Positions 51,792-55,046 of a stretch of DNA of 64,000 bases are shown piece after piece. How positions within the stretch are numbered: the stretch's first letter is position 1; each line of letters starts with the position of its first letter. This DNA comes from a virus, in the UHGV virus genome UHGV-1430915; one strand, 5' to 3'. The translations under genes and the position numbers were made by a program. The notes under the pieces were generated by a model that did not search any database, was not told the origin of the DNA, and saw only the letters and a list, made by a program, of their open reading frames with translations.

Positions 51792-51912
51792 AGCACCGAG
51801 CCCACACAGGTTCCTCATGCTAAAGCATGGCCTGAAGAGGCAAACGTGCATAATTCCTGTGCATTGGAACGTATAAAACCCTGTTCACACTCTCATTTCT
51901 AGAGGAGATTTC

Positions 51913-52128
51913 ATGAAGATAGAAATATTTGGTGGAGCTGACAACACTTGTGGCCTGATTTACCTCGAATTCGATGAATCGTACCTGCCAGAAGTGTTAA
52001 ACATGGATTCTGTTGCTGAGGCTTTGGGAGTAAGTCCTAAAGATCTCTACTCTGGTGCTGAGATTGATGGTTGGGAGGAGACCATGAACATCGATTTCAG
52101 TGAAGTAGGTGATGAACCGCTGGACTGA
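51913..52128 (+). CDS. small acidic protein, family A-like
   Basis: MKIEIFGG start, 71 aa, acidic. Confidence 0.5.
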   Translation: MKIEIFGGADNTCGLIYLEFDESYLPEVLNMDSVAEALGVSPKDLYSGAEIDGWEETMNIDFSEVGDEPLD

Positions 52129-52129
52129 C

Positions 52130-54420
52130 ACACAATTAGTTGCCCGGCTAAAGTGCTGGAAGCACCCATAACATCTTCCAACTAAATTTCCTACCAACAC
52201 AGTTACTTACCCACCACACATGACTGTTTGCTTGTTTAGTGAGCAGTCATCCCTTGACATTCTTGCCTATCTTGATAAAATTAAGTTCTTCTCTTTTCTT
52301 TTACCGAGTAATTCGGGTTTTCTGTTCTCTTCGGTTTGAAGGGGTATGGAGATACACCTGAGTGAACAGGGTGAACAACCGAACCTTTAGCTATGGCATT
52401 AGCATGGCGAAGCGGACGGGTGACGAAAGAGGGGCCGGAGGACACCAGTCACTGCCATATAGTATATGGGTGATAACCTGAAGAGTCTGAATAAGTGTTT
52501 AAGTACCAGTCAGAGGAAAAGGTGAATGGTAGCCGAAGGGGGAGGGGGGTTTCTTATATCTTTAATTTGTATACTTTATATACACTTGTAAACCAATTCA
52601 ATTAGGATCTGTTTACCACACAAAGTGGATGGAGACAAATATCACCTATTAAACTTGAATTATTTATAGAAAATACCACAACACTACTTAAGTCTTTGAT
52701 TTTACACACAAATCCTACAGATATTCACCCTCCATATTTAACATACTTGTAACATATCCCATACTCTACCTGTCTGATCAATTTACCCAACTACATCCCC
52801 ATATTTTTCCTGTCTGTACTACCCCTGCCCCGCCGGGAGTCTCGTCATATCTGGCTTCCCAGCAAATATCACACCCACAAATATCATTGCCTGAAGAGGG
52901 TTTCATCCCATAATACATGCCTTACCTGAAGAGGGTTTCATACACCACGTAAATTTTTTAATTGACCTCCCCTGCCCCGCCGGAGAGGTTGGCTTTTCCC
53001 ACACAGACCTGAAGAGTCGGCCAGAAATATCTGAATAGGTCCAGTTCTGCCCTGTCATGAGCGGTAGCGACTGGAGTGCTGCCAGGCGGACGGAATGGGA
53101 ATACTTCTCATTTTTATAATAATTCTCAAATATCGAGGCAGTGAGGCAAATTAATAGGTCAGGCCGTTCACACAGTGGCACAACATTTGCAATCTATCTT
53201 GTGGGAGTGAATGAGAATACCTATCATTGTGAGAATGGTTATCATTACGGGCAATTTAACATAATACCCATTATGCGCACCACTGGCGATACATACAGGG
53301 ATTGATAACATGGGTTACTGTTTACGCACATAACAATTATATTTCTTACTATTTGTGCGGGATATAGTTAGCAACCAATAGATTAGATATTGACCTGCGG
53401 ACTTCTGACCGTCCAGACGTCTAAACGCCCACACAATAAGGGTTATACATACATTCCTGAATGTAAACAGGGCCGCAAAAATGCTACCATACCAGTTTGT
53501 AAATTTTTCATGCAGCACTTGACAAAGAGGAGAAAAACTTGTCTGACACTTTTGCCACTTTTGACACAATATGACACAATAACGGCTGTTACTATTCCAT
53601 ATCTCACTGTTTACGCATAGACTGTTTACGCCTGAATAGTTTACGCCCAAACTGTTTACACAGAGATGATAAGCCATGCCATTCGTTTGCATGAAAACAA
53701 TTAACAAGATAACAATTAACAAGTTAATAATCTTTCGCTGGCTATGCCAGGTGACTAGGTCACCCCTTCGGGCGTTTATATGACATAATATAAAAGCAGG
53801 GCAACTATTAGAAGATCTATAGTTGCCTTACTTGTTATGTCATGATTAACTAAATACAAGGCAACTATGATCTGAGTAATAGATTGCAGAAAAACTATCA
53901 CGGGGGTGATGGTTACTGCTTTTATATTATGTCGCGACTCCGTCGCGCCATGCCATTCGTTTGCATAGTTGCCTTATTGTTACAGGTAAAATAATTACAT
54001 TATTAATTATTTCTTATCTTTCTCTTAGTCATCTAATGATTCCAGTCAGTATAGTAATGTACAGTAAACATTAGACGACTAAAGATTTCTCTGTTTATGA
54101 TAACTCATCGTGATAATTTCGGGCTGTTTACGAAAAATGTTGACACCTGAGCTGATTTATGTTATGCAGTTTACACGAATAATTATTTTATGCAGGTATT
54201 AACTATTCCGTTATTCTGTGGTTGGAATAAATACTTTGCAGGCTATAGAATGGCGTGCGTACGTGAATTCTGAGATCTGGCGGCTATAGTTATACTCGAT
54301 TTTTCGCGTAGAACACGCTTTAGATGCTGTGTAAGTGTATGACTTATAAAGATTTTTAGTTGTTGACAAGATATTGGAGATGTGCATCAGGTTAAAATTT
54401 GTGCAATAGCGGCATTACGT
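52130..54420. repeat. 2.3-kb ORF-free repeat-rich region (candidate origin, terminus or regulatory hub)
   Basis: no credible ORF; cctgaagag motif x4, cccctgccccgccgg x2, ~13-bp-period tgtttacgc iterons x4, catgccattcgtttgcat x2, acaattaacaag x2, palindromes ggtgac-tag-gtcacc and cgcgac-tcc-gtcgcg, ~19-bp inverted repeat flanking 53780-53935. Confidence 0.6.
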
Positions 54421-54580
54421 GCACTTTTGGGAGAGAAAACGGGTAAAAATGGACTTGCTACCACACAATGAAAAATTATGCAATAGTTATTTTCCATGTA
54501 TATTTGTACAGTATGTGGGATTGATGGCTAGTCAATTATTCCACTTGCCAGGTAGGGCCGTTTATGGTAGGAGAAGAGCA

Positions 54581-54607
54581 GACAAAAAGAAAGGGGCCTA
54601 AGCCCCT
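54581..54607 (-). terminator. intrinsic terminator at 3' end of minus-strand small-gene block
   Basis: minus-strand stem AGGGGC/GCCCCT followed by TTTCTTTTTGTC. Confidence 0.6.
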
Positions 54608-54626
54608 TGATAATTCAGTTAAAAAA

Positions 54627-55046
54627 TTATAATGATTCGTATATTTCAAAAATCCGATTTGCCAGGTCGTTACGGTAGCTGAATTTTTCCTCACGTTTGA
54701 TCATAAGATCTTTATAGCCGTACTCTTTAAGCACTTCATTAACTTTATGGCGGCATACTTTCATATTATCCTGCGCGTCACCAATAAATCTGTTGCTATG
54801 GTGCATGGCTTTAATTTCTTCTTCCAGGACCAGGGCAACTATGCGGACCGGATCAAGCTGATAGGCGGTAACATCCATGCGGCATTGTAAACGGCTTTTT
54901 ACGTCTGCCACCGGATATACTGCAACCTCTTCCCCGTCAACATTGACAATAATTAGTTTACCATCGATTTCGAATCCTTTCGCCGCCGGACCGTGACAAA
55001 AAGCGTTATCAAAGCTATATGCCGGATTATTAGATTTAATGTTCAT
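54627..55046 (-). CDS. hypothetical protein
   Basis: 139-aa ORF with upstream promoter and RBS. Confidence 0.55.
   Translation of the reverse strand: MNIKSNNPAYSFDNAFCHGPAAKGFEIDGKLIIVNVDGEEVAVYPVADVKSRLQCRMDVTAYQLDPVRIVALVLEEEIKAMHHSNRFIGDAQDNMKVCRHKVNEVLKEYGYKDLMIKREEKFSYRNDLANRIFEIYESL

Follow-up and report, generated by a model that had tools for sequence, protein, structure and literature searches.

A gene-free gap at positions 52129-54626 of virus genome UHGV-1430915, analysed here as a stretch of 64,000 nucleotides (the window), appears to be the terminal region, or concatemer junction, of a Vequintavirus genome, where the two ends of the virion DNA would be joined in a circularly closed assembly. 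We give this reading a probability of roughly 0.85. Within the gap, homology to sister phages shows positions 53085-53543 to be a 459-bp direct terminal repeat (DTR). The source phage is an rV5-like E. coli myovirus of the genus Vequintavirus, an assignment made through 122 matching phage records: in a megablast search of the phage collection with positions 52130-54620, all 122 (90-96% identity) were rV5-like myoviruses, and those carrying a taxonomy line belonged to Vequintavirus. Megablast and the more sensitive blastn on this collection returned the same 122 records and none outside them.

The first-pass annotation of this DNA had named a packaging or terminal-repeat boundary among several candidates for the region, and the sister phages bear this out, since the 459-bp repeat found at both ends of their records maps to 53085-53543. 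In ECP2309, bases 1-459 equal the last 459 bases, and the start and end of the record correspond to 53085 and 53543, respectively. The record of vB_EcoM_Gotham (MT682716) has annotated repeat regions at 1-459 and 136567-137025, which are identical to each other, and its base 1 aligns to position 53085 (blastn, query position 956). EdH4, bov10K2, bov11CS3, bov22_2, bov25_3, Pr121LW and OX460980 open or close at the same two positions, so that at least nine records, Gotham and ECP2309 included, start or end exactly at 53085 or 53543. Published descriptions agree: a 459-bp terminal repeat with a fixed packaging start and the "same specific start sequence" was reported for Gotham (PMC7471380), and 458-bp terminal repeats for EdH4 and HdK5 (PMC6563267). 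In rV5 the DTR maps to 104973-105431. The analysed stretch carries a single copy, with the following features in and around its boundaries:

53085-53543: direct terminal repeat, 459 bp; the left physical end begins GGCGGACGGAATGGG and the repeat ends ...CTTGACAAAGAGGAGAAAAACTTGTC
53040-53084: indel-rich zone outside the left DTR boundary, ending in a conserved TGCTGCCA before the cut position
53544-53581, plus strand: tandem TGACACTTT / TGACACAATA, starting exactly at the right DTR boundary (TRF periods 9 and 10)

Conservation was measured in an 18-sequence MAFFT alignment that included 17 relatives. Identity of the DTR within the genus is 92-96%. To the left of 53085 identity is 0.82 (100-nt windows, 52980-53129), with insertions of up to ~55 bp in relatives at 53040-53070; to the right of 53543 it is 0.52-0.66 with copy-number variation, and the TGACACTTT / TGACACAATA array varies in both copy number and sequence. 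At both DTR boundaries, conserved DNA thus gives way abruptly to indel-rich DNA, which gives independent comparative support to their placement.

Some database records of this locus are peculiar. The record of Shigella phage CM1 (L023) contains a second, partial copy of the DTR segment (~53345 to 53560) inserted after ~53572, which most likely arose as an artefact when the terminal repeat was assembled. For the bov records MT884008-11, the announcement paper (PMC8407724) gives 135,960 bp and "circular permutated", whereas version 2 has 135,883 bp and starts exactly at the DTR boundary. Finally, 19 GenBank "Campylobacter phage" records (MG0656xx), mostly with C. jejuni as the listed host, are 88-96% identical to the locus and look mislabelled or derived from contaminating coliphages.

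A similar arrangement is found beyond the genus. Klebsiella phage KPP-1 (Mydovirus) has a 514-bp DTR with about two-fold coverage and a T7-type call by PhageTerm (PMC9862379), and this DTR sits in a ~1.8-kb gap between convergent small-gene arrays. In Escherichia phage A7_1 (Vequintavirinae, no genus assigned) the syntenic position is occupied by a 1.9-kb gap; the putative repeat boundaries that we use for this phage are our own and unpublished. The gaps of KPP-1 and A7_1 have no overall DNA similarity to that of the window, yet the three share a number of features. At the left boundary (marked by a caret) the window reads TGCTGCCA^GGCGGACGG, KPP-1 reads GGTGCT^AGACGGACAG, and A7_1 has TGCTGCCAGGC. 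About 45 nt inside the repeat all three have CAAAATATC, and all three carry an island of the form ATTTAACATAA...TTATaCGCAC (ATTTAACATAA...TTATGCGCAC). The right end is purine-rich, with CTTGACAAAGAGGAGAAAAACTTGTC^ in the window and CTTGACAAGGAGAGAGAATTGTGTT^ in KPP-1. Downstream of the repeat lies an inverted repeat of 18-21 nt (21 nt in KPP-1 and A7_1), whose arms have diverged between the genera and are still complementary; ...TCGCGCCA comes after it (read by eye in KPP-1 and A7_1). To the left of the repeat, both phages have motifs related to AAATATC and to the CTGAAG type, as judged by eye and not scored by a tool. Two features inside the DTR stand out in this comparison:

53254-53280: cross-genus island, ATTTAACATAATACCCATTATGCGCAC, also written ATTTAACATAAtACnnnTTATaCGCAC, aligning in the window, KPP-1 and A7_1 and giving the best BLAST match to the latter two
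53096, 53212 and 53230, plus strand (span 53096-53246): three copies of TGAGAAT-N3-TATCATT, palindrome-like and Fur-box-like

The TGAGAAT-N3-TATCATT family has 12 matches in the KPP-1 locus as compared to 1.3 expected, 11 of them in the terminal region; this cross-genus count covered KPP-1 only. BME3, a phi92-like phage, has the motif in its repeat too; its record, in which the DTR annotation contains Ns and is oddly placed and tandem copies occur, served for motif comparison only. Palindromes of the forms TGAGAAT-N3-TATCATT and TGATAA-N4-TTATCA (53096-53246 in the window; 4214-4975 in L025; BME3, L149) thus occur in terminal regions of three lineages. Counted by hand against what we take to be the E. 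coli Fur-box consensus, matches reach 16/19 in BME3 and 14/19 in the window, and host Fur or a phage protein might bind these sites. Scans of IMG/VR contributed only 3 and 1 loci, and in a metagenome scan with a 16-mer, a query that was too short, 0 of 120 matches were homologous.

The gap itself is bounded by the stop codons of two genes and is closed on one side by a terminator:

51913-52128, plus strand: last plus-strand gene; the gap starts after its stop
54627-55046, minus strand: first minus-strand gene, 139 amino acids, stop at 54627
54608-54591, minus strand: intrinsic terminator closing the minus-strand array, with a 7-bp stem containing 5 G-C pairs, then TCTTTTTGTC

It had been proposed at first pass that 52130-54420 is free of open reading frames (ORFs), dense in repeats and located at a switch from plus- to minus-strand transcription. 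The gap is real and slightly larger than proposed, ~2.5 kb. The strand switch is also correct, and the arrangement is a convergent one, not a divergent promoter region: the small hypothetical genes of both arrays are transcribed toward the gap. The absence of coding capacity was confirmed, as the larger ORFs within the gap (135, 92, 76, 60 and 58 amino acids) are intact in just 0-6 of the 17 relatives, and substitutions in gap ORFs are spread evenly over the codon positions (for example [13,14,13] and [17,18,18]), whereas the flanking genes have an excess at the third position (for example [10,5,34] and [11,6,57]). These patterns rule out a protein-coding gap. A 21-codon hydrophobic ORF at 52526-52591 was rejected as well because indels in a G-run among relatives shift its frame. 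Most of the 122 matching records have no annotation beneath the matched region, and about 120 relatives in GenBank share the gap. The terminator at 54591-54608 is also annotated in the records of Gotham, Murica and Alma. The 139-amino-acid gene at the edge of the terminal region is missing in 4 of the 17 relatives and is apparently a variable accessory gene.

In the 2013 genome paper on rV5 the corresponding region was drawn as a grey "non-coding" box that "contained no ORFs"; its authors expected bidirectional terminators between genes 163 and 164 and found none, and they explained a shift in skew at 104425-105475 by the reversal of transcription (PMC3606486). The rV5 DTR falls inside this interval. 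In the window, too, the cumulative GC skew turns at the gap, with the change tracking gene orientation.

The claim of repeat density also stood, with every listed repeat family present. Repeated 12-mers number 24 in the gap; dinucleotide shuffles gave 0.4 +/- 0.9, and other stretches of the same length averaged 2.0. On the side of the right genome end, the features are:

52129-53084: unique non-coding DNA by the right genome end, left of the DTR, with a promoter-led block and short plus-strand motifs
52254-52281, plus strand: sigma-70-type promoter directed toward the DTR, TTGACA-16 nt-TAAAAT with TG (11/12 scan match)
52282-52556, plus strand: ultra-conserved block of ~275 nt, G-rich, ending in GGGGGAGGGGGG (52538-52549) and then a T-rich stretch
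52477, 52890, 52925 and 53008, plus strand: four copies of CCTGAAGAG in the gap, with a fifth at 51831, also on the plus strand
52822 and 52969: two copies of CCCCTGCCCCGCCGG, left of the DTR
52637, 52864, 52879 and 53025, with 53128 just inside the DTR, plus strand: AAATATC, 5 of the 16 copies in the window

In the whole window CCTGAAGAG occurs 8 times as compared to 0.58 expected, and the three copies outside the cluster are within coding sequence. The promoter hexamers are kept in the 17 relatives, save one −35 base in CM1, and the spacer has diverged in one relative (L011). Across 52254-52556 identity reaches 96-99.6% (100-nt windows), as compared to about 86-95% in the flanking genes, and the only variable sites are at 52385-89 and 52461-64, together with a 1-nt indel polymorphism in the G-run of GGGGGAGGGGGG. 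The block was found in 119 phage records at 95-100% identity, and no near-complete Vequintavirus genome is without it; one phage-like "plasmid" record was the only other hit, and there was no match in 5,426 E. coli genomes. GGTGA occurs four times in the block on the plus strand (52370, 52419, 52469 and 52521; three as GGGTGA) at spacings of 49, 50 and 52 bp, where ~0.2 occurrences are expected; this phasing may reflect protein binding or chance.

On the side of the left genome end, the gap contains:

53606-53662, plus strand: four ACTGTTTACGC "iterons" at 15-bp spacing, the third reading ATAGTTTACGC
53673 and 53947: two copies of GCCATGCCATTCGTTTGCAT, a 20-bp direct repeat that brackets the inverted-repeat module
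53673-53966: inverted-repeat module, flanked by the GCCATGCCATTCGTTTGCAT copies, with perfect 18-nt arms at 53782-53799 and 53916-53933, four GGCAACTAT/ATAGTTGCC sites and the palindrome GTCGCGAC at 53931-53938
53696-53731: tandem AACAATTAACAAGAT, 2.4 copies, inside the module
53967-54590: AT-rich non-coding DNA with conserved patches, GC 0.34-0.39, identity 0.90-0.96, ORFs not conserved
54140 (region 54125-54200), plus strand: TTGACA of a possible promoter, hexamer invariant and spacer variable

The period of the iteron run had been given as ~13 bp and measures 15 bp; an extra ACTGTTTACGC copy is found at 53317, within the DTR. Relatives have ~1-5 copies, and nowhere else in the gap is identity as low as in the iteron zone (0.52-0.66). 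The perfect palindromes reported at first pass are present, each being only 8-10 bp long, and the ~19-bp inverted repeat said to flank 53780-53935 corresponds to the perfect 18-nt arms. As single-stranded DNA the module folds at -44 kcal/mol (z = -8.5), and because this folding stands out equally on both strands it points to a DNA-level repeat. The module is invariant in the genus with the exception of FV3. The possible promoter at 54140 would read antisense, toward the terminator of the minus-strand array; it is flanked by TGTTTAC-type motifs (54125 and 54167) and a duplicated TTAT(G/T)TTATGCAG.

By analogy with T7 and T3, replication would yield head-to-tail concatemers with one repeat copy per junction. 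In T7, the concatemer site PacB is bound by the small terminase subunit, and cleavage by the large subunit takes place at PacC (PMC9860248). In the present phage, the terminase would likewise recognise sites round the junction and cut at ...TGCTGCCA^GGCGGACGG... and ...AACTTGTC^TGACAC...; the repeat would then be duplicated by fill-in or strand-displacement synthesis, placing it at both ends of every virion DNA. The surrounding ~2 kb would stay gene-free through cis-acting signals. Those of the right end may comprise the host-type promoter directed toward the junction and the clustered AAATATC and CCTGAAGAG motifs, those inside the repeat the candidate protein-binding islands conserved across genera, and those of the left end the short tandem arrays of variable copy number together with the conserved inverted-repeat module. 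All these motifs are candidate signals. By synteny with rV5, the terminase gene probably lies outside the analysed 64 kb. Other details of T7/T3 packaging are those of the classical literature (Dunn & Studier 1983; Chung & Hinkle 1990; Fujisawa & Morita 1997).

Several observations weigh against a terminal region as the explanation of the gap. The ends of this particular isolate are placed by homology, most GenBank relatives are opened at other positions, and the bov Vequintaviruses were called "circular permutated" by PhageTerm (PMC8407724). The DTR accounts for 459 of the ~2,500 bp, with the roles of the flanks assigned by analogy. FV3 (L021) is without the inverted-repeat module, the deletion lying exactly between the two 20-bp direct repeats; either the module is therefore dispensable, through a real recombination event, or the FV3 assembly collapsed. 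In addition, the block at 52254-52556 has no blastn counterpart in the gaps of KPP-1 or A7_1, and the packaging model leaves it unexplained. We tentatively consider that this block may be an undescribed functional element, either a structured ~270-nt RNA made by host RNA polymerase or a DNA element activated by transcription (an R-loop origin or a packaging enhancer), and that the inverted-repeat module may serve end processing as a conserved cis-acting structure. The DNA-element reading is consistent with the GGGGGAGGGGGG run that ends the block and with the four GGTGA sites phased at 49-52 bp.

The first-pass annotation had listed one or more non-coding RNAs as a candidate for the gap; the main one would be an RNA of ~270 nt made from the 52254 promoter, from 52289 to ~52556. 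In its favour, the promoter retains its hexamers around a variable spacer, and the transcribed part exceeds the genes nearby in conservation. What little variation this part shows is located in predicted loops, such as that of a CCAUAU-AGU-AUAUGG hairpin, and its pyrimidine-rich 5' end and purine-rich 3' end can pair. Its predicted folding is of weak significance, with a z-score of -1.3 over the full block and of -2.6 in the best local segment, and no significant folding signal was found in the gap outside the inverted-repeat module. There is no clear intrinsic terminator, and blastn gave no homologue in the KPP-1 and A7_1 gaps or in E. coli genomes. Rfam 15 returned nothing for the gap at the gathering threshold, and no credible family even at E <= 10, where the matches were U6 in the gap (E 3.4) and sR3 mostly in the flanking gene (E 9.1), both chance-like. 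The 17 distinct block sequences differ at too few sites for covariation, so this analysis was abandoned, and our literature search turned up no relevant transcriptome study of Vequintavirus. An RNA gene here is thus possible, and we regard it as doubtful. It is rather unlikely that the gap, or part of it, is a replication origin, which could coexist with a DTR: the iterons, the module and the AT-rich DNA would bind an initiator, or an R-loop at the promoter-led G-rich block would prime synthesis, as in the secondary origins of T7, oriF of T4, and ColE1. In T7, secondary origins of the promoter type lie close to the ends. In the gap the tandem repeats spaced at 15 bp adjoin an AT-rich stretch (GC 0.34), a G-run closes the G-rich transcribed block behind the strong conserved promoter, and the cumulative GC skew turns. 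According to the account of Chung & Hinkle given in PMC9860248, plasmids with an origin plus a concatemer junction were packaged. Against an origin, the iterons lie in the least conserved zone and number four here and ~1-5 in relatives, so that a set of at least three direct repeats is not conserved in the lineage. No initiator gene adjoins them and the gap has no conserved ORF; there are 0 perfect DnaA boxes and no cluster, with one-mismatch matches only weakly enriched (~2.4-fold). The turn in skew goes with gene orientation, a point made by the rV5 authors (PMC3606486), the module is absent from FV3, and the promoter-led block is specific to the genus.

Decaying DNA or the remnant of a mobile element, for example a miniature inverted-repeat transposable element (MITE) bounded by the 18-nt inverted and 20-bp direct repeats, is very improbable. 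An inverted repeat within direct repeats does look like an insertion, and FV3 is without exactly that segment. The module, however, occupies the same position relative to the DTR in three genera, with arms that have diverged and yet remain complementary; most of the gap is 90-99% conserved, equal to or above the flanking genes, and no further copy of the element was found within the window. A T5-like injection stop, which would halt DNA entry after a first-step transfer segment and had also been suggested at first pass, seems to us hardly credible: the likeness is a superficial one, namely a non-coding region rich in repeats and palindromes near a genome end. It is not supported because the repeat is short (459 bp) and gene-free, leaving no set of pre-early genes ahead of the putative stop; transcription of the genes on either side runs toward the ends, and DNA searches of the phage collection gave no similarity to T5-like phages.

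A terminal region at this locus provides the correct physical start and end for the genome, which is to be opened at 53085; many GenBank Vequintavirus records have been opened arbitrarily. It now explains the 2.5-kb "non-coding" box of rV5, left uninterpreted in the reference paper, and it marks cis-acting DNA to be retained when therapeutic-candidate phages are engineered or rebooted from synthetic DNA, or when transducing particles are made. The cross-genus motif map supplies targets in the search for packaging signals, namely the boundaries, the ATTTAACATAA...TTATGCGCAC island, TGAGAAT-N3-TATCATT and the inverted-repeat module. The terminal repeat of Vequintavirus is already documented for sister phages and is largely ordinary, and the conceptual gain is small, as short terminal repeats with flanking arrays are a known type of phage end; what remains of interest is the ultra-conserved block behind the promoter, together with the motif map across genera. 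Elsewhere in the window, ARAGORN detected a cluster of seven transfer RNA (tRNA) genes at 10346-11157 on the minus strand and no other tRNA. One of the seven is a 99-nt call with a four-base anticodon ("tRNA-???") and scores just 35.5 bits in Rfam.

In comparison with known systems, the sister phages (Gotham, MT682716; EdH4, MK327930; HdK5; ECP2309) and the box of rV5 represent the same locus at 90-98% identity. The sister phages have the same 459-bp segment with the same boundaries and the same convergent flanking arrays, without substantive difference; relative to their records, the analysed DNA is a permuted or circularly closed assembly with one repeat copy. The sister-phage papers give the length of the repeat only, with no dissection of the surrounding 2 kb (PMC7471380, PMC6563267). 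KPP-1 and A7_1 resemble the window in having the repeat within a 1.8-1.9-kb gene-poor gap between convergent small-gene arrays, and differ in repeat length. Iteron-type origins of plasmids and phages likewise combine AT-rich DNA with adjoining short tandem direct repeats and with inverted repeats, whereas the "iterons" of the window are hypervariable in number and sequence, with no adjacent initiator gene and no cluster of DnaA boxes. The terminal repeat of T5 is ~10 kb long, carries the pre-early genes and has the injection-stop signal inside, in contrast to the 459-bp repeat without genes described here; we know of no two-step DNA transfer in an rV5-like phage. In T7 and T3 the terminal repeat is 160-230 bp long and is flanked by the short-repeat arrays SRL and SRR, with the phiOR promoter. 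There is no sequence relationship between these phages and the window, the promoter in the window is of the host sigma-70 type and not of the phage RNA polymerase type, and the non-coding region is far longer (2.5 kb), in a myovirus with a 136-kb genome. The junction of T7/T3 is nevertheless similar in design, with a short, exact and gene-free terminal repeat that has fixed ends and is present as a single copy per junction. By the same analogy, the right-end promoter with its AAATATC and CCTGAAGAG clusters may correspond to phiOR and PacB near the right end of T7, and the left-end arrays (TGACAC-type, ACTGTTTACGC and AACAATTAACAAGAT) may be the counterpart of SRL beside the left terminal repeat.

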